A DNA stretch of 64,000 nt, taken from Shigella phage TB004. The translations under genes were made by a program, and so were the position numbers. The number at the start of each line of letters is the position of its first letter. Position 1 is the stretch's first letter. Below the pieces are notes generated by a model. It saw only the letters and a list, made by a program, of their open reading frames with translations, ran no database searches and had not been told where the DNA came from. Below, piece after piece: positions 40,961-63,594 of the stretch. The DNA lies in the sequence record MW822011; one strand, written 5' to 3'.

Positions 40961-41009
40961 GAGCTTCGGCTCCTATATTGCTTTATAAATTTTTGGTAAA
41001 ATAATTAAA

Positions 41010-41804
41010 ATGAATTATTTAAATATATATAATTTACTGATAGAAAAAGGACTAAACAGAGGCAATGATAAAAGTCTTTTGACATACTATACTGAAACTC
41101 ATCATATAATTCCTAGATGTATGGGTGGTACAGATGATAAAACTAATTTAGTTCTTTTGACACCAGAAGAACATTTTACCGCGCATTTATTATTATTTAA
41201 AATTTATAGACTTCCTAAATTGGCTTTAGCTATTCGTATGATGTGTTATAGTTCTGACGGAACAAGACTAAATAATAAAATGTATGGATGGATTAAAACA
41301 GCTGTATCTTCCTCAATATCGGAAGGCATGAAAGAGTTCTGGAAAGATGATGATAATAAAAAATACATGTCTAACGCTAGACGAAATGCTGGAAAACCAA
41401 TTTATCAATATGATTTAAATGGAAATTTTATTCGCAAATATAGATGTATTACAGATGCTGCAGAAGATATGTCATATAGCTGTTCAAGTTCAATTAAACA
41501 ATGTGTAGATGGGAAAAGGAAAACCGCTGGAGGATTTCAATGGAAATATTATTATTCTGATAACATAGGAAAGCCCTCTAGGATGTCTAATGCAACTAAA
41601 CAAAAAATGTCTAAATCTAAACGTGGGATAACTCAGAAAAGAAATGTGCCAGTATTTCAATATGATACTACTGGAAAATTATTACGAGTATTTCCTAAAA
41701 TTAAAGACGCAGCTGTATCCGTTAAAGGATGCATGTCTAATATTAAAAAGTGCATATCTGGAAAAAGCAAAATTGCTTATGGATATGTTTGGGCCTATTC
41801 GTAG
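41010..41804 (+). mobile_element. HNH homing endonuclease gene (Mob-like)
   Basis: HNH motif ETHHIIPRCMGG...NLVLL...HFTAH; repeated PIYQYD/VFQYD NUMOD-like modules. Confidence 0.65.
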
Positions 41805-41862
41805 TGTTTTATAGAAAATAAAATATTATTTACATGATTTATTGAATGAAAAGAGGAAAACT

Positions 41863-43065
41863 ATGCGTATTTGCATTTTTATGGCTCGGGGTCTTGAAGG
41901 TTGCGGTGTAACTAAATTTTCTCTTGAGCAACGTGATTGGTTCATTAAAAATGGCCATGAAGTAACTCTGGTTTATGCTAAAGATAAATCATTTACTCGT
42001 ACAAGTTCTCATGACCACAAATCATTTTCAATTCCAGTTATTTTAGCTAAAGAATACGATAAAGCACTTAAACTGATTAATGATTGTGATATTCTAATTA
42101 TTAATTCTGTTCCTGCTAATTCCGTTCAAGAAGCTACGATTAATAACTATAAAAAACTTTTAGATAATATTAAACCTTCTATTCGTGTTGTAGTTTATCA
42201 GCATGATCATTCTGTTCTTTCTTTGCGTCGAAATTCGGGATTAGAAGAAACTGTTCGTCGAGCTGATGTTATTTTTAGCCATTCTGATAATGGTGATTTT
42301 AATAAAGTTCTGATGAAAGAGTGGTATCCAGAAACTGTTTCTCTGTTTGATGATATTGAAGAAGCACCGACAGTATATAACTTTCAGCCTCCTATGGATA
42401 TTGCGAAGGTTCGGTCAACTTATTGGAAAGATGTTTCTGAAATTAACATGAATATCAACCGTTGGATTGGTCGTACTACTACATGGAAAGGATTTTATCA
42501 GATGTTTGATTTTCACGAAAAACATCTTAAACCTGCTGGTAGATCCACTGTAATGGAAGGTCTTGAACGTTCCCCTGCTTTTATTGCAATTAAGGAAAAA
42601 GGTATTCCGTATGAATATTACGGTAATCGTGAGATTGATAAAATGAATCTCACGCCGAATCAACCGGCACAAATCCTAGATTGTTATATTAATAGCGAAA
42701 TGCTTGAACGAATGAGTAAATCTGGCTTTGGATATCAGTTGAGTAAACTTAACCAGAAATACTTACAACGCTCACTCGAATATACTCATCTTGAATTAGG
42801 CGCTTGTGGTACAATTCCTGTTTTCTGGAAATCTACTGGCGAAAATTTAAAATTCCGTGTTGATAATACTCCTTTGACCTCGCATGATAGCGGTATCATT
42901 TGGTTTGATGAAAATGACATGGAATCAACATTTGAACGTATTAAAGAATTGTCATCTGACCGAGCTCTTTATGACCGTGAGCGAGAAAAAGCGTATGAAT
43001 TTTTGTATCAGCATCAAGATTCAAGCTTCTGCTTTAAAGAACAGTTTGACATTATTACAAAATAA
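41863..43065 (+). CDS. agt: DNA alpha-glucosyltransferase
   Basis: 400 aa starting MRICIFMARGLEGCGVTKF; matches recalled T4 AGT. Confidence 0.85.
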   Translation: MRICIFMARGLEGCGVTKFSLEQRDWFIKNGHEVTLVYAKDKSFTRTSSHDHKSFSIPVILAKEYDKALKLINDCDILIINSVPANSVQEATINNYKKLLDNIKPSIRVVVYQHDHSVLSLRRNSGLEETVRRADVIFSHSDNGDFNKVLMKEWYPETVSLFDDIEEAPTVYNFQPPMDIAKVRSTYWKDVSEINMNINRWIGRTTTWKGFYQMFDFHEKHLKPAGRSTVMEGLERSPAFIAIKEKGIPYEYYGNREIDKMNLTPNQPAQILDCYINSEMLERMSKSGFGYQLSKLNQKYLQRSLEYTHLELGACGTIPVFWKSTGENLKFRVDNTPLTSHDSGIIWFDENDMESTFERIKELSSDRALYDREREKAYEFLYQHQDSSFCFKEQFDIITK

Positions 43066-49796: not shown

Positions 49797-52493
49797 ATGA
49801 AAGAATTTTATATCTCTATCGAAACAGTCGGAAATAACATTGTTGAACGTTATATTGATGAAAATGGAAAGGAACGTACTCGTGAAGTAGAATATCTTCC
49901 GACTATGTTTAGACACTGTAAGGAAGAATCAAAATACAAAGACATTTACGGTAAAAACTGTGCTCCTCAAAAATTTCCATCAATGAAAGATGCACGAGAT
50001 TGGATGAAACGAATGGAAGACATCGGTCTCGAAGCTCTCGGTATGAACGATTTTAAACTCGCTTATATCAGTGATACATATGGTTCAGAAATTGTTTATG
50101 ACCGAAAATTTGTTCGTGTAGCTAACTGTGACATTGAGGTTACTGGCGATAAATTTCCTGACCCAATGAAAGCAGAATATGAAATTGATGCTATCACTCA
50201 TTATGATTCAATTGACGACCGTTTTTACGTCTTTGATTTGTTGAATTCAATGTACGGTTCAGTATCAAAATGGGATGCAAAGTTAGCTGCTAAGCTTGAC
50301 TGTGAAGGTGGTGATGAAGTTCCTCAAGAAATTCTTGACCGAGTAATTTATATGCCATTCGATAATGAGCGTGATATGCTCATGGAATATATTAATCTCT
50401 GGGAACAGAAACGACCGGCTATTTTTACCGGTTGGAATATTGAGGGATTTGACGTTCCGTATATCATGAATCGTGTTAAAATGGTTCTGGGCGAACGCAG
50501 TATGAAACGCTTCTCCCCAATCGGTCGAGTAAAATCTAAATTAATTCAAAATATGTACGGTAGCAAAGAAATTTATTCTATTGATGGCGTATCTATTCTT
50601 GATTATTTAGATTTGTATAAGAAATTCGCATTTACTAATTTGCCGTCATTTTCTTTGGAATCAGTTGCTCAGCACGAAACCAAAAAAGGTAAATTGCCGT
50701 ACGATGGTCCTATTAATAAACTTCGTGAGACTAATCATCAACGATACATTAGTTATAACATCATTGACGTAGAATCAGTTCAAGCAATTGATAAAATTCG
50801 TGGGTTTATCGATCTAGTTTTAAGTATGTCTTATTATGCTAAAATGCCTTTTTCTGGTGTAATGAGTCCTATTAAAACTTGGGATGCTATTATTTTTAAC
50901 TCACTGAAAGGTGAACACAAGGTTATTCCTCAACAAGGTTCGCACGTTAAACAAAGTTTTCCAGGTGCATTTGTATTTGAACCTAAAGCGATTGCTCGTC
51001 GATACATTATGAGTTTTGACTTGACGTCTCTGTATCCTAGCATTATTCGTCAGGTTAACATTAGTCCTGAGACTATTCGCGGGCAGTTTAAAGTTCATCC
51101 AATTCATGAATATATCGCAGGAACAGCTCCTAAGCCAAGTGATGAATATTCTTGCTCTCCGAATGGATGGATGTATGATAAGCACCAAGAAGGTATCATT
51201 CCAAAGGAAATCGCTAAAGTATTTTTCCAGCGTAAAGATTGGAAAAAGAAAATGTTCGCTGAAGAAATGAATGCCGAAGCTATTAAAAAGATTATTATGA
51301 AAGGTGCAGGGTCTTGTTCAACTAAACCAGAAGTTGAACGATATGTTAAGTTCAATGATGATTTCTTAAATGAACTATCAAATTACACTGAATCTGTTCT
51401 TAATAGTCTGATCGAAGAATGTGAAAAAGCAGCTACACTTGCTAACACAAATCAGCTGAACCGTAAAATTCTTATTAACAGTCTTTATGGTGCTCTTGGT
51501 AACATTCATTTCCGTTACTATGATTTGCGAAATGCTACTGCTATCACAATTTTTGGTCAAGTTGGTATTCAGTGGATTGCTCGTAAAATTAATGAATATC
51601 TGAATAAAGTATGTGGAACTGATGGTGAAGATTTCATCGCAGCAGGTGATACTGATTCGGTATATGTTTGTGTAGATAAAGTAATTGAAAAAGTAGGTCT
51701 TGACCGCTTTAAAGAACAAAATGATTTAGTTGAATTCATGAATCAGTTTGGTAAGAAAAAGATGGAACCTATGATTGATGTTGCATATCGTGAGTTATGT
51801 GATTATATGAATAACCGCGAGCATCTAATGCATATGGACCGTGAAGCTATTTCTTGTCCTCCACTTGGTTCAAAGGGCGTTGGTGGATTTTGGAAAGCGA
51901 AAAAACGCTATGCTCTGAACGTTTATGATATGGAAGATAAGCGATTTGCTGAACCACATCTAAAAATCATGGGTATGGAAACTCAACAGAGTTCAACACC
52001 AAAAGCAGTACAAGAAGCTCTCGAAGAAAGTATTCGTCGCATTCTTCAGGAAGGCGAAGAGTCTGTCCAAGAATACTATAAGAACTTTGAGAAAGAATAT
52101 CGTCAACTTGACTATAAAGTTATTGCTGAAGTAAAAACCGCGAACGATATAGCGAAATATGATGATAAAGGTTGGCCAGGATTTAAATGTCCGTTCCATA
52201 TTCGTGGTGTGCTAACTTATCGTCGAGCTGTTAGCGGTTTAGGTGTAGCTCCAATTTTGGATGGAAATAAGGTAATGGTTCTTCCATTACGTGAAGGAAA
52301 TCCATTTGGTGACAAGTGCATTGCTTGGCCATCAGGCACAGAACTTCCAAAAGAAATTCGTTCTGACGTACTATCTTGGATTGACTACTCAACTTTGTTC
52401 CAAAAATCGTTTGTTAAACCGCTTGCGGGCATGTGTGAATCAGCAGGTATGGACTATGAGGAAAAAGCTTCGTTAGACTTCCTGTTTGGCTGA
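49797..52493 (+). CDS. 43: DNA polymerase gp43 (family B)
   Basis: 898 aa; exonuclease and polymerase motifs including AAGDTDSVYV. Confidence 0.95.
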   Translation: MKEFYISIETVGNNIVERYIDENGKERTREVEYLPTMFRHCKEESKYKDIYGKNCAPQKFPSMKDARDWMKRMEDIGLEALGMNDFKLAYISDTYGSEIVYDRKFVRVANCDIEVTGDKFPDPMKAEYEIDAITHYDSIDDRFYVFDLLNSMYGSVSKWDAKLAAKLDCEGGDEVPQEILDRVIYMPFDNERDMLMEYINLWEQKRPAIFTGWNIEGFDVPYIMNRVKMVLGERSMKRFSPIGRVKSKLIQNMYGSKEIYSIDGVSILDYLDLYKKFAFTNLPSFSLESVAQHETKKGKLPYDGPINKLRETNHQRYISYNIIDVESVQAIDKIRGFIDLVLSMSYYAKMPFSGVMSPIKTWDAIIFNSLKGEHKVIPQQGSHVKQSFPGAFVFEPKAIARRYIMSFDLTSLYPSIIRQVNISPETIRGQFKVHPIHEYIAGTAPKPSDEYSCSPNGWMYDKHQEGIIPKEIAKVFFQRKDWKKKMFAEEMNAEAIKKIIMKGAGSCSTKPEVERYVKFNDDFLNELSNYTESVLNSLIEECEKAATLANTNQLNRKILINSLYGALGNIHFRYYDLRNATAITIFGQVGIQWIARKINEYLNKVCGTDGEDFIAAGDTDSVYVCVDKVIEKVGLDRFKEQNDLVEFMNQFGKKKMEPMIDVAYRELCDYMNNREHLMHMDREAISCPPLGSKGVGGFWKAKKRYALNVYDMEDKRFAEPHLKIMGMETQQSSTPKAVQEALEESIRRILQEGEESVQEYYKNFEKEYRQLDYKVIAEVKTANDIAKYDDKGWPGFKCPFHIRGVLTYRRAVSGLGVAPILDGNKVMVLPLREGNPFGDKCIAWPSGTELPKEIRSDVLSWIDYSTLFQKSFVKPLAGMCESAGMDYEEKASLDFLFG

Positions 52494-53062: not shown

Positions 53063-53314
53063 ATGGAAACTTTAGTAGCAGGTTCAATTTTTATGGTTTT
53101 AGTTTCAGGTGTGTTGGCTATTATTATATACATGCTTCCGTGGTTCATCGCCTTGATGCGTGGGTCAAAATCGACAGTAGGAATCTTTTTCACATCTTTA
53201 CTGTTTAACTGGTCAATCATTGGTTGGTTTATTACTTTTATTTGGTCAATTGCAGGTGAAACTAAAAAATCTGTACAGCAAAATCAAGTAATTATCATCA
53301 GAGAGAAGGAATGA
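53063..53314 (+). CDS. imm: immunity to superinfection membrane protein Imm
   Basis: 83 aa, two TM helices; size and position match T4 imm. Confidence 0.75.
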   Translation: METLVAGSIFMVLVSGVLAIIIYMLPWFIALMRGSKSTVGIFFTSLLFNWSIIGWFITFIWSIAGETKKSVQQNQVIIIREKE

Positions 53315-53460
53315 AAAGCAAAATTTTAGCAGTATTGCTTTTAATCTTGATGATTATAATAAGTATATACTATAGCGTAGCAGTTCCTTGTATGATTCCA
53401 ACCCTTATTATAGGGTGGAGTTTATTACTGTTACAAGTTAAATATGAATGCATCAATTGA
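53311..53460 (+). CDS. small membrane protein
   Basis: 49 aa hydrophobic, ATGA overlap with imm stop. Confidence 0.35.
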   Translation: MKSKILAVLLLILMIIISIYYSVAVPCMIPTLIIGWSLLLLQVKYECIN

Positions 53461-53467
53461 GGTTTAA

Positions 53468-54208
53468 ATGATTAACGATTATATGACAGTTGAAGAAATC
53501 CGTCTTGATTTGGGTCTTGCATTAAAGGAAAAAGATTTCGTAATTGATAAAACCGGGGTTAAAACTATTGAAATTATTGGTGCATCATTTGTAGCAGATG
53601 AACCTTTTATTTTTGGCGCTCTTAATGATGAATACATTCAGCGTGAACTTGAATGGTATAAGTCTCAAAGTTTGTTTGTTAAAGATATTCCAGGTGAAAC
53701 ACCAAAGATTTGGCAGCAGGTAGCATCTTCTAAAGGTGAAATTAACTCGAATTATGGTTGGGCCATCTGGTCAGAAGATAACTATGCCCAATATGATATG
53801 TGTTTAGCTGAACTTGGTCAAAATCCTGATTCTCGCCGCGGTATCATGATTTATACTCGTCCATCCATGCAGTTTGACTACAATAAAGATGGTATGTCAG
53901 ATTTCATGTGTACGAATACAGTACAGTATCTGATTCGTGATAAGAAAGTCAATGCAGTGGTTAGCATGAGAAGCAATGATTGCTGGGCAGGCTATCGTAA
54001 TGATTATGCATGGCAAAAATACGTACTAGATAAATTAGTATCTGATTTGAATGCAGGCGACCCATCGCGGCAATATAAAGCAGGTTCTATTATATGGAAC
54101 GTTGGAAGTCTTCATGTGTACGAAAAACAGTTTTATTTAGTTGACCATTGGTGGAACACTGGTGAAACTCATATTGCTAAAAAGGATTATACTGGAAAAT
54201 GGAAGTAA
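53468..54208 (+). CDS. 42: dCMP hydroxymethylase gp42
   Basis: 246 aa thymidylate-synthase-like; matches T4 gp42. Confidence 0.9.
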   Translation: MINDYMTVEEIRLDLGLALKEKDFVIDKTGVKTIEIIGASFVADEPFIFGALNDEYIQRELEWYKSQSLFVKDIPGETPKIWQQVASSKGEINSNYGWAIWSEDNYAQYDMCLAELGQNPDSRRGIMIYTRPSMQFDYNKDGMSDFMCTNTVQYLIRDKKVNAVVSMRSNDCWAGYRNDYAWQKYVLDKLVSDLNAGDPSRQYKAGSIIWNVGSLHVYEKQFYLVDHWWNTGETHIAKKDYTGKWK

Positions 54209-54840
54209 ATGTGCCACATGTTTATAAGTATAAACATCCTAAAACTAAAAAGTGGTATATAGGAAGTCATGATGGTCACAACCCGAATTATGATGGTTCG
54301 GGTGTAGTTTGGCAACATGCTAAAAAGAAATATGGAATAAAATCCTTTAATAAAGAAATATTATATGAAGGACCAATGTTTAGACAGGTTGAAGAAATTA
54401 TTTTAACTTGTTTAGATGCTGCTAATTGTCCGGATTCATATAATTTAAAGAATGAAGCATGGGGAGGAAGTTTTCCAGGCAAATTAAATGGAATGTACGG
54501 TAAAAAACTATCTCCAGAAGAAAGATATAAGTGCGGAAATGCCTTTCGTGGAATCAAGCGTCCTGATCATTCTAAAAGAATGAAAGGCGAAGGTAATCCA
54601 ATGTATGGTAAAAATGAGCAGGCATATGGAATTATAAATCGAGCCAAGGAAAATTCTGGTAAAACTTATGAAGAAATTTTTGGCGTAGAAAAAGCTAAAA
54701 TAATTAAAGAAACGATGTCTAAAAATCGTAAAGGAAAACCTCATAATTTGATAGAAAAAATATGTCCGCATTGCGGACTAAAAGGACGTGGGCCAAATAT
54801 GACAAGATACCATTTTGACAAATGTAAGGCACTTAAATGA
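54199..54840 (+). mobile_element. GIY-YIG (Seg-like) homing endonuclease gene between 42 and glucosyltransferase
   Basis: N-terminal HVYKYKH...KKWYIGSHDG GIY-YIG-like motif; repeated NGMYGK/NPMYGK modules; zinc finger CPHC. Confidence 0.6.
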
Positions 54841-55679
54841 TTCAATTCGTAATTCCAAGCTATCAACGCGTAGGGGCAGTTTCTGCCCTTAATATGTTTC
54901 CGACTGATTATGAACCTCATATTGTAGTACGTGAACATGAAGAAAAAGCTTATTATGACGCTTACGGGTCTAGAGCTAAAATTATAACTATTCCTGATGA
55001 TGTCAATGGAATTGCCGGTACTCGTAAAGCAATTACTGATATGTATGCAGGTCAACGAATCTGGATGATTGATGATGATACTACTATTCGTATGAGTTCA
55101 ATACGAAAGAGAGACGATAAACGGCGTGTAGATAAAGTCAATCAATTGACTCGTGAGCAATTCTATGAATTAATTCAATACGTTGAGGATGCAATGGATT
55201 GCGGGTATTATCATGGTCATGCTCGTCTACCAATTTTTAAAATTACTTCATCTTGGGGTAATTATCGTGAAAACTCATATGGATTCACGAATACATGGTA
55301 TGACCTCGGAAAACTTACGACAGAACAAATTGGGTATGGAAAAATTGATTTATGCGAAGATATGTATGCATTTCTCAATTTAATTAATCAAGGTTATCCG
55401 CATTTGGCCTTGTTCAAATATCTAGTTGTATCTGGAAAATCACACGCTCCCGGTGGGTGTAGTTCAATTCGTAGTAATTCTAAACATAATAGAGCGCTTG
55501 AGCAAATCAATAGAGAGTTTCCAGAGCAAGCTCGTTGGAAAACATCGAATATTGAAAAACGAAAATCGTTGGGTGAAGAAGACGAGCCATTAAAAGTTCT
55601 TCGCATGTGTGTTTCGCGTAAAGAAAAATCAGAAGCGTTTCATAAGTTTAATGCTATTCATCCAATAGCAGTTGATTAA
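54837..55679 (+). CDS. GT-A type glycosyltransferase (candidate beta-alpha-glucosyltransferase of T2/T6 type)
   Basis: 280 aa with DxD motif (MIDDDTT); in beta-gt position but shorter and unlike recalled T4 beta-gt. Confidence 0.5.
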   Translation: MIQFVIPSYQRVGAVSALNMFPTDYEPHIVVREHEEKAYYDAYGSRAKIITIPDDVNGIAGTRKAITDMYAGQRIWMIDDDTTIRMSSIRKRDDKRRVDKVNQLTREQFYELIQYVEDAMDCGYYHGHARLPIFKITSSWGNYRENSYGFTNTWYDLGKLTTEQIGYGKIDLCEDMYAFLNLINQGYPHLALFKYLVVSGKSHAPGGCSSIRSNSKHNRALEQINREFPEQARWKTSNIEKRKSLGEEDEPLKVLRMCVSRKEKSEAFHKFNAIHPIAVD

Positions 55680-55756
55680 TGCCTAAATTTATTGTGTTAT
55701 AATTACTCTATCTTTAACCAGTGAGGAAAATATAATGATGCCTATGGAAAAAATGA

Positions 55757-56938
55757 ATGTCTATTGCAGATTTAAAATCCCGTTTGATTAAAGCTTCCAC
55801 TTCTAAAATGACTGCTGAACTGACTACATCTAAATTCTTTAATGAAAAGGATGTAATCCGTACAAAAATCCCAATGCTTAATATTGCTATTTCAGGTGCG
55901 ATTGATGGTGGTATGCAGTCTGGTTTAACCATTTTTGCAGGTCCTTCTAAACACTTTAAATCAAATATGTCTTTGACTATGGTTGCGGCGTATTTGAACA
56001 AATATCCTGACGCGGTATGTCTATTCTATGATAGCGAATTTGGTATTACTCCAGCTTATTTGCGATCCATGGGAGTTGACCCGGAACGAGTAATTCATAC
56101 ACCAATCCAGTCAGTTGAACAGCTGAAAATTGATATGGTGAATCAGCTTGAAGCTATTGAGCGTGGTGAAAAAGTTATTGTATTCATCGACTCAATTGGT
56201 AATATGGCTTCTAAGAAAGAAACGGAAGATGCCTTGAATGAAAAATCTGTGGCAGATATGACTCGTGCTAAATCACTGAAGTCATTATTCCGTATTGTTA
56301 CTCCTTATTTTAGTATTAAAAACATTCCATGCGTTGCGGTTAACCATACAATTGAAACAATTGAAATGTTTAGTAAAACCGTGATGACAGGTGGTACAGG
56401 CGTAATGTATTCGGCTGATACTGTATTCATTATCGGTAAGCGCCAGATTAAAGATGGTTCTGATCTTCAGGGGTATCAATTTGTTCTAAATGTAGAAAAA
56501 TCTCGTACCGTCAAAGAAAAAAGTAAATTCTTTATTGATGTTAAATTTGACGGTGGTATCGATCCTTATTCTGGATTGTTAGATATGGCTCTTGAATTAG
56601 GATTTGTGGTAAAACCTAAAAATGGCTGGTATGCTCGTGAATTTCTTGACGAAGAAACCGGTGAGATGATTCGCGAAGAAAAATCTTGGCGTGCAAAAGA
56701 TACCAACTGCACTACATTCTGGGGTCCTTTATTTAAGCATCAGCCATTCCGAGATGCTATTAAACGTGCTTATCAGTTAGGTGCTATTGATAGTAATGAA
56801 ATTGTTGAAGCTGAAGTTGATGAATTGATTAACTCAAAGGTTGAAAAATTTAAATCTCCAGAAAGTAAAAGTAAATCAGCAGCTGATTTAGAAACTGACC
56901 TAGATCAGTTAAGTGATATGGAAGAATTTAATGAATAA
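55757..56938 (+). CDS. uvsX: RecA-like recombinase UvsX
   Basis: 393 aa, Walker A GPSKHFKS; near-identical to recalled T4 UvsX. Confidence 0.92.
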   Translation: MSIADLKSRLIKASTSKMTAELTTSKFFNEKDVIRTKIPMLNIAISGAIDGGMQSGLTIFAGPSKHFKSNMSLTMVAAYLNKYPDAVCLFYDSEFGITPAYLRSMGVDPERVIHTPIQSVEQLKIDMVNQLEAIERGEKVIVFIDSIGNMASKKETEDALNEKSVADMTRAKSLKSLFRIVTPYFSIKNIPCVAVNHTIETIEMFSKTVMTGGTGVMYSADTVFIIGKRQIKDGSDLQGYQFVLNVEKSRTVKEKSKFFIDVKFDGGIDPYSGLLDMALELGFVVKPKNGWYAREFLDEETGEMIREEKSWRAKDTNCTTFWGPLFKHQPFRDAIKRAYQLGAIDSNEIVEAEVDELINSKVEKFKSPESKSKSAADLETDLDQLSDMEEFNE

Positions 56939-61673: not shown

Positions 61674-63013
<1,340 letters not shown>

Positions 63014-63075: not shown

Positions 63076-63594
63076 ATGCCACATTTCAACGAATGTAGTC
63101 AACTGATCGAAGGCGCCGATAAAGCTCAAAATGAATACTGGGATATTCTCGGTGATGAAAAAGACCCACTGCAGGTTATGCTTGATATGCAGAAATCTTT
63201 GCAGGTTCGTTTAGCTAAAGATAAACCTGAATATAACCGTCATCCTGATGATTTGGCTACTGCAGGCGAAGTTGTTGATTGGCTGCGTAATCAGAAAGAT
63301 TACATTGATGATGAATTCCGCGAACTTCTGACTTCTCTTGGTGGTATGAGCAATGGTGAAAAAGATGCATCTGCTGTATGGAAGCCTTGGAAGTCGCAGC
63401 ATGGTGAACGCCGTGAAACTCTAATTACTGATTTGTCTCCTCAAGACCAGTTGGAAATTAAATTCGAAATGATTGATATTCTTCATTTCGTTCTGAACAT
63501 GTTCCAAGGTCTCGGCCTTACTGCTGAAGAAATCTTTAAACTTTATTATTTGAAGAATGCTGAAAACTTCGCTCGTCAAGATCGAGGTTATTAA
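63076..63594 (+). CDS. 56: dCTP pyrophosphatase gp56
   Basis: 172 aa; matches recalled T4 gp56. Confidence 0.85.
   Translation: MPHFNECSQLIEGADKAQNEYWDILGDEKDPLQVMLDMQKSLQVRLAKDKPEYNRHPDDLATAGEVVDWLRNQKDYIDDEFRELLTSLGGMSNGEKDASAVWKPWKSQHGERRETLITDLSPQDQLEIKFEMIDILHFVLNMFQGLGLTAEEIFKLYYLKNAENFARQDRGY

Follow-up and report, generated by a model that had tools for sequence, protein, structure and literature searches.

A T2/T6-type beta-1,6-glucosyl-HMC-alpha-glucosyltransferase very probably occupies the beta-gt slot of Shigella phage TB004

Which glucosyltransferase does Shigella phage TB004 encode between genes 42 and uvsX, where T4 carries its beta-glucosyltransferase gene (beta-gt), and which sugars would the phage DNA carry as a result? 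The question was addressed in a window of 64,000 nucleotides of sequence record MW822011, the whole stretch of DNA that was analyzed. A sequence-only reading had described a 280-aa enzyme with a DxD motif between these two genes, and both statements are borne out. The ORF listing shows an uninterrupted frame on the plus strand at 54837-55679, running from ATG 54837 to TAA 55679 over 280 codons, with the motif MIDDDTT at residues 77-83, and the plus strand order is 43, an imm.1-like ORF, imm, 42, a 213-aa ORF, the 280-aa ORF, uvsX, 40 and 41. Family scans of the neighbouring ORFs assign gene 43 (DNA polymerase, 49797-52493, plus strand) and uvsX (55757-56938, plus strand), and gene 42, the dCMP hydroxymethylase that is the source of hmC, lies at 53468-54208 (plus strand; Pfam Thymidylat_synt, PHROG 160), syntenic with T2, T6 and T4. 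Comparison with the gene orders of T4, T6 and T2 places the 280-aa ORF in the T4 beta-gt slot, i.e. the 42-uvsX interval, which in the window also hosts the 213-aa ORF, an endonuclease gene described below that the sequence-only reading had overlooked. Scanning 53300-55800 for promoters and terminators gave counts no higher than in shuffled sequences. A hairpin at 54871-54891, within the coding sequence and also present in T2 and T6, was not taken as a terminator.

Sharing the slot of T4 beta-gt does not make the product a T4-type enzyme. The sequence-only reading had excluded this, pointing to a protein about 70 residues shorter and to a different N-terminus; the lengths are indeed 280 and 351 aa, and the proteins start with MIQFVIPSYQR here and MKIAIINMGNN in T4. 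Neither BLASTP nor the PDB search yielded a strong full-length alignment to T4 beta-gt, the result that had been named as speaking against this exclusion. BLASTP against T4 beta-gt returned only scraps of 7-35 residues with E of at least 3 (the best covering 7 residues), a PDB sequence search with the T4 beta-gt entries included gave nothing relevant at E <= 10, and tblastn of T4 beta-gt against the whole 64-kb window (of a genome of ~168 kb) found no match at E <= 10.

A DNA search, on the other hand, matched the gene over 843 of 843 nt in 474 phage records at 90-97.6% identity, where it is named beta-glucosyl-HMC-alpha-glucosyltransferase or glucosyl transferase, and in many cases only hypothetical protein. 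At the amino acid level, the closest proteins are those of JEP6 (99.3% identity) and of vB_Eco_BGP, slur14 and ESh36 (98.9%). The alignment to the T2 and T6 enzymes that the sequence-only reading had proposed as a check runs over all 280 residues, with 97.1% identity to T2 b-gt (BBC14657.1) and 96.4% to T6 ggt (YP_010067197.1), while T4-like phages of Klebsiella, Enterobacter, Salmonella and Citrobacter have more distant homologues, at ~65%. Family profiles agree: PHROG 842, "beta-glucosyl-HMC-alpha-glucosyltransferase", is matched at E = 1e-87 over residues 1-275, and Pfam TAGT (PF20691, TET-associated glycosyltransferase) scores 41.3 bits against a gathering score of 27.5, residues 3-207 aligning with profile positions 2-205 of 205. 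Nearly all relatives found have a precomputed PF20691 match, and NCBIfam holds no model for alpha-gt or for the 280-aa glucosyltransferase. Relatives were collected in a first search (11 proteins), followed by a profile search and, for family breadth, an exhaustive representative search; the TAGT family comprises 2153 representative clusters (50% identity, E <= 1e-3). It should be noted that no association with a TET/JBP dioxygenase was seen in the neighbourhood examined, where gp42 is the source of hmC. The TET/JBP association is the origin of the TAGT name and no condition of the Pfam model, and the branch to which the T-even members belong is independent of TET.

Taken with the intact frame and the structural model presented below, these matches make it very probable that the 280-aa ORF (54837-55679, plus strand) is the T2/T6-type beta-1,6-glucosyl-HMC-alpha-glucosyltransferase (ba-gt or ggt; Pfam TAGT), the identity that the sequence-only reading had favoured. 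None of the results speaks against this assignment. This is a common, long-characterised gene and the identification adds nothing biologically new: knowledge of the activity goes back to the early 1960s, and that of the T2 and T6 genes to 1993.

The 213-aa ORF upstream of ba-gt (54199-54840, plus strand) corresponds to a Seg-like GIY-YIG homing endonuclease (PHROG 314, E = 2e-31; 32% identity to T4 SegA, E = 4e-9) and stands outside the modification pathway. It is absent from this site in T2, T6, T4 and BGP, and of the 474 records that bear ba-gt only 77 have it. The endonuclease gene is 100% identical in ESh29 and many other phages, while its flanks differ by 3-5%, a pattern of the kind that homing elements typically leave when they have spread recently. 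Between 38 and 64 kb the window and vB_Eco_BGP are collinear and share 93-97% identity, with two breaks, at 41005-41871 and 54192-54834, both homing-endonuclease insertions that BGP lacks. Co-conversion around the endonuclease gene was considered as an explanation for the lack of any ba-gt match above 97.6% at the nucleotide level, and was rejected: identity to ESh29 changes abruptly at either end of the endonuclease gene, with no sign of a longer conversion tract.

To characterize the enzyme structurally, an alignment of 47 relatives, down to 13% identity, was used as input for AF2 structure prediction. The resulting model of the 280-aa protein (mean pLDDT 91.6, pTM 0.90) is a single Rossmann-like alpha/beta/alpha domain that fits solved GT-A structures, and it matched only GT-A (GT2-like) glycosyltransferases, namely B4GALNT1, WrtF, the beta-1,3-glucosyltransferase AvpGT, GnT-I, TarS, TarP and SpsA, as well as cellulose and hyaluronan synthases. 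Foldseek is in agreement (WrtF, TarP, K4CP, TarS). Neither T4 glucosyltransferase is among the structure matches listed; both have a GT-B fold (PMC13216743), and the T6 TAGT protein has been modelled as GT-A, grouping beside GT2 (PMC13216743).

Six positions are invariant in 47 of 47 relatives, I6, R11, R63 and D79-D80-D81, and P7, Y9, R32, Y39, T62 and R212 are nearly so. The DDD triplet (codons gatgatgat, 55071-55079, plus strand) is the DxD motif expected to contact metal and nucleotide-sugar, and in the model it directly follows core beta-strand 74-78, at the C-terminal end of the strand. R11 (codon 54867-54869, plus strand) belongs to an IPSYxR motif that is intact in the window and carries His in T2; this motif makes up the opening strand and loop of the half that binds the nucleotide. 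D175, within the sequence CEDMY (codon 55359-55361, plus strand), is Asp in 41 of the 47 relatives and is modelled at the N-terminus of helix 174-184, ~95 residues beyond the DxD. GT2 enzymes have their catalytic base at a helix N-terminus, ~90-95 residues after the DxD, and by analogy D175 is a candidate catalytic base of an inverting GT-A enzyme.

The picture that emerges would be that of a small, single-domain, inverting and GT2-like GT-A enzyme, in which a divalent metal and the UDP-sugar would be held by the invariant DDD (79-81) and the nucleotide by the N-terminal IPSYxR motif together with R63, D175 being the likely base that activates the 6-OH of the acceptor glucose. The PDB sequence search returned no solved family member, only chance matches at E ~2 to an unrelated PNPOx-like protein, and the roles proposed for DDD and D175 hence rest on the model and on analogy.

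In order to predict the DNA modification, the remaining genes of the pathway have to be considered. An alpha-gt gene of 400 aa, whose product makes the acceptor alpha-glucosyl-hmC, is found at 41863-43065 (plus strand; PHROG 2888, E = 7e-215) and shares 98% identity with the annotated BGP alpha-gt across 400 aa; the label "second glucosyltransferase" originally given to the 280-aa enzyme is therefore apt. T4-type beta-gt is absent within the 64-kb window. Gene 56 (172 aa, 63076-63594, plus strand), collinear with the annotated BGP gene, encodes a dCTPase/dCTP pyrophosphatase that excludes unmodified C. The proposed route would have three steps: gp42 would provide hm-dCMP, with C replaced by hmC in the DNA; alpha-gt would then add an alpha-linked glucose to about three quarters of the hmC residues; and the 280-aa enzyme, using UDP-alpha-D-glucose with inversion, would place a beta-1,6 glucose on the first sugar, yielding alpha-gentiobiosyl-hmC.

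Published DNA analyses allow the product to be anticipated. HPLC/MS of DNA from the Durham-collection Escherichia phages BGP, EL and Geo gave 5-hmdC, alpha-glucosyl-hmC and alpha-gentiobiosyl-hmC at ~1:2:2, with beta-glucosyl-hmC absent, and in seven other Tequatrovirus isolates gentiobiosyl-hmC accounts for about two thirds and hmC for about one third (PMC13390438). T6 without ba-gt (also called g-gt) loses gentiobiosyl-hmC and carries alpha-glucosyl-hmC only (PMC11078745, PMC13160076). The DNA of the window phage is accordingly predicted to contain naked hmC (~20-33%), alpha-glucosyl-hmC and gentiobiosyl-hmC, and no beta-glucosyl-hmC. The earlier proposal of gentiobiosyl rather than beta-glucosyl modification thus stands as to the kind of product, which is the one seen with near-identical orthologues and lost in the T6 deletions; its extent is not fixed by the presence of the gene. 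This gene complement is no departure from the norm. Among phage genomes surveyed, alpha-GT or beta-GT together with TAGT is the commonest arrangement, and the T4 pairing of alpha-GT and beta-GT was found in 6 of 753 (PMC13216743); alpha-GT plus TAGT is the usual, majority Tequatrovirus state, and T4 is the exception.

How far the second glucosylation goes is a separate matter. T2 has ~5% gentiobiosyl-hmC, BGP-type phages have ~40%, and the figure for T6-type phages is ~67-72% (PMC13390438, PMC13160076). With an extent of ~5-72% among enzymes that are 96-99% identical, the amount is not confidently predictable from sequence; the ba-gt gene predicts the presence of gentiobiosyl-hmC and not its quantity. 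Enzyme comparison nevertheless separates two alleles. I89, K95, R97, S202 and H203 are common to the window, BGP, EL and Geo, and M89, R95, C97, A202 and Q203 to CP, TB37, T6, T2 and teqskov; BGP, EL and Geo convert only about half of their alpha-glucosyl-hmC. Residues 89-97 fall within a basic hairpin just past the DxD. CP and TB37 have about two thirds gentiobiosyl-hmC (PMC13390438) and were the near-complete converters compared, NR1, Some, EH2, QOTSP and Solly being left out. Judged by these residues, the window carries the BGP-type allele. The dam gene (62234-63013) and the 186-aa ORF preceding it are likewise present in the window and in BGP-type phages, and dam has been noted as differing between the two phage groups, a restriction enzyme-like gene being mentioned too (PMC13390438). 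Because the allele, dam and the adjacent 186-aa ORF are all shared, our best guess is that the window phage has a mixed alpha-glucosyl and gentiobiosyl pattern; a ratio of ~1:2:2, as measured in phages with this allele, would follow if the allele governs the extent. That small allelic differences in ba-gt are themselves what sets the extent of second glucosylation is a tentative and rather unlikely proposal, drawn from a correlation over five phages with measured DNA and the classic strains, a sample that is small and confounded by phylogeny.

T2 and T6 offer further variants. The T2 gene, identical in all eight T2 records and in phage SV76, carries R11H and P251S, and teqskov, the nearest T2 relative, keeps R11 and P251. 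As R11H affects a family-invariant residue, it may explain the low gentiobiosylation of T2, 5% versus 72% in T6. Two T6 depositions differ from the intact gene: MH550421 has a TAG at ggt codon 10, with the CDS annotated from M20, and AP018814/NC_054907 has an in-frame 3-nt deletion in ggt that turns DDD into DD.

Such variation raises the alternative that ba-gt is poorly active or inactive in the window phage, as it may be in T2 or in the sequenced T6 stocks, the DNA then being essentially alpha-glucosyl-hmC and naked hmC. Very similar orthologues do have very unlike outcomes, as T2 with ~5% gentiobiosyl-hmC illustrates; T2 has its substitution at the invariant R11, each T6 GenBank lineage has a lesion (TAG at codon 10; DDD to DD), and one substitution, D19N, is private to the window protein. 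The intact ORF, however, keeps I6, P7, Y9, R11, R32, Y39, T62, R63, DDD, D175 and R212, it shows just three differences from the enzyme of BGP, whose DNA is ~40% gentiobiosylated, all of them at non-conserved positions (19, 50 and 101), and, as in T2 and BGP, its start codon still overlaps the preceding gene in an ATGA. Poor activity is thus very unlikely.

Slightly less probable still is that the 280-aa enzyme substitutes for T4 beta-gt, directly beta-glucosylating naked hmC as a convergent solution on a different fold. The shared genomic slot would suit this, an inverting GT-A enzyme with UDP-glucose would be expected to give a beta linkage on any acceptor, and in 288 of 753 phage genomes a solitary TAGT occurs without alpha-GT and beta-GT (PMC13216743), so some TAGT members must use another acceptor. 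Against it, beta-glucosyl-hmC is undetectable in the phages whose enzymes are 98.9% identical, and ~20-33% of their hmC stays naked (PMC13390438), T6 gains alpha-glucosyl-hmC as it loses gentiobiosyl-hmC upon removal of ba-gt (PMC11078745, PMC13160076), and the window itself encodes the alpha-gt that makes the acceptor. Transfer of another sugar (e.g. arabinose, as in Mosigvirus/RB69-type phages), or modification of another base, is hardly credible: TAGT proteins form a large, diverse family (2153 clusters) and donor specificity is unreadable from fold alone, but the enzyme is 96-99% identical to those of phages with gentiobiose on hmC, Mosigvirus arabinosylation involves different genes and 5-hydroxycytosine instead of hmC (PMC13390438), and the window has an hmC-type gene 42 and alpha-gt.

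Under the preferred assignment, a T2/T6-type ba-gt acting after alpha-gt, the modification also bears on host defence. The sequence-only reading had anticipated a different sensitivity to modification-dependent restriction, and the literature on Brig1, Brig3 and BapA agrees with it. Brig1 excises alpha-glucosyl-hmC and leaves T6 DNA undegraded in vitro, and T6 without ba-gt shows greater Brig1 sensitivity (PMC11078745). The ~25% of hmC that stays naked in T2 and T6 exposes these phages to restriction by Brig3, whereas fully glucosylated T4 escapes it unless BapA is present, and gentiobiose is not removable by BapA (PMC13160076). GmrSD and BrxU are active on all these hmC forms (PMC13216743, PMC13390438). 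The window phage is thereby expected to be sensitive to 5hmC-specific glycosylases that need naked hmC, such as Brig3, to be partly protected from alpha-glucosyl-hmC-specific enzymes (Brig1 and the deglucosylase BapA), and to be still attacked by type IV enzymes of the GmrSD/BrxU kind (PMC11078745, PMC13160076, PMC13216743, PMC13390438). For annotation and for phage-therapy use, the ba-gt gene hence indicates the DNA state and the defence response.

Finally, the enzyme can be set beside the known systems. T4 beta-gt and ba-gt both use UDP-glucose and both make a beta linkage on modified phage DNA. They share a genomic neighbourhood without detectable sequence similarity, T4 beta-gt being a GT-B enzyme (CAZy GT63, PF09198, 351 aa) and the window enzyme a predicted GT-A protein of 280 aa, and they differ in acceptor, which is the hydroxymethyl group of hmC for the former and would be the glucose of alpha-glucosyl-hmC for the latter. 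The GT2-type enzymes TarP, TarS, AvpGT, SpsA and K4CP have, like the window enzyme, a Rossmann-like GT-A core, an N-terminal xPxY, a DxD ending the fourth strand and an acidic residue ~90-95 residues downstream at a helix N-terminus. Their identity to it is only 8-16%, and the window enzyme is set apart by its acceptor, a sugar on double-stranded DNA, and by a basic beta-hairpin after the DxD (82-98, rich in R and K) which may contact the DNA.

Closest are the T2 and T6 ba-gt enzymes, which agree with that of the window in length (280 aa), the 42-uvsX slot, the alpha-gt partner, PHROG 842 and PF20691. They differ from it in having M89, R95, C97, A202 and Q203 instead of I89, K95, R97, S202 and H203, and the window gene has neither the R11H and P251S of T2 nor the lesions of the T6 records. 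In T2, T6 and BGP, gene 42 directly abuts ba-gt with an ATGA overlap, whereas in the window the endonuclease gene intervenes and its stop codon makes the ATGA overlap kept at the ba-gt start. The BGP enzyme itself has D19, V50 and I101 where the window has N19, I50 and V101.

Sequence comparison sorts the ba-gt enzymes of the phages with measured DNA, all beta-glucosyl-HMC-alpha-glucosyltransferases of the TAGT family (PF20691), into two allele classes. The window, whose ba-gt gene lies at 54837-55679 (+ strand), carries the I89/K95/R97/S202/H203 class together with BGP, EL and Geo, phages in which gentiobiosylation amounts to ~40% (PMC13390438). The M89/R95/C97/A202/Q203 class is found in CP, TB37, T6, T2 and teqskov, with about two thirds gentiobiosyl in CP, TB37 and T6. 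The codons concerned, 89-97 and 202-203, occupy 55101-55127 and 55440-55445, and in the predicted structure model residues 82-98 form a basic beta-hairpin directly after the DxD motif.

T6 is the reference phage for high gentiobiosylation, yet ba-gt is damaged in both of its sequenced lineages, each by its own lesion. In record MH550421 (L002, 3028-3030) codon 10 is an amber TAG and the annotated CDS starts from M20, giving 261 aa, while AP018814/NC_054907 (L005) shows an in-frame 3-nt deletion around codon 79, which reduces the invariant DDD to DD and the protein to 279 aa. Concerning T2, its ba-gt (L003, record LC348380, 3001-3843) carries R11H and P251S at codons 11 and 251, the first of them at a position where Arg is invariant in the alignment (47 of 47 diverse TAGT family members). 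This allele is identical in all 8 T2 records and also in phage SV76; unlike it, the ba-gt of teqskov, the closest T2 relative, keeps both R11 and P251. Judging from these substitutions, T2 ba-gt is possibly a hypomorph, and if so, it could account for gentiobiosyl-hmC being ~5% in T2 versus 72% in T6. Both T2 and T6 also have a GC-rich, 9-bp hairpin of the window, TAGGGGCAG-TTT-CTGCCCTTA (54871-54891, + strand), which was flagged by the terminator scan but is located within the coding sequence, at ba-gt codons 12-18.

Further along, a 186-aa ORF and dam, directly downstream of it, span 61674-63013 (+ strand) and are collinear with BGP_065 and BGP_066 of BGP. The 259-aa dam product matches TIGR00571 (E = 6e-70), and the 186-aa ORF, with no match in NCBIfam, may be the "restriction enzyme-like gene" of PMC13390438.

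Two endonuclease-like genes lie next to the glucosyltransferase genes. Between gene 42 and ba-gt, a Seg-like GIY-YIG homing endonuclease gene (54199-54840, + strand; 213 aa, PHROG 314 match, 32% identity to T4 SegA) is present in only 77 of the 474 phage records that carry ba-gt. It shows 0 mismatches to ESh29 over ~640 nt, with both flanks 3-5% different and sharp boundaries, a pattern characteristic of mobile elements that have been spreading recently. The second, a 264-aa homing-endonuclease-like ORF (41010-41804, + strand; PHROG 655, E = 2e-52), is an insertion immediately upstream of alpha-gt (41863-43065, + strand), and BGP lacks the segment holding it, 41005-41871. At the gene 42/ba-gt site, the window likewise differs from T2, T6, T4 and BGP, all of which lack the Seg-like endonuclease gene there.
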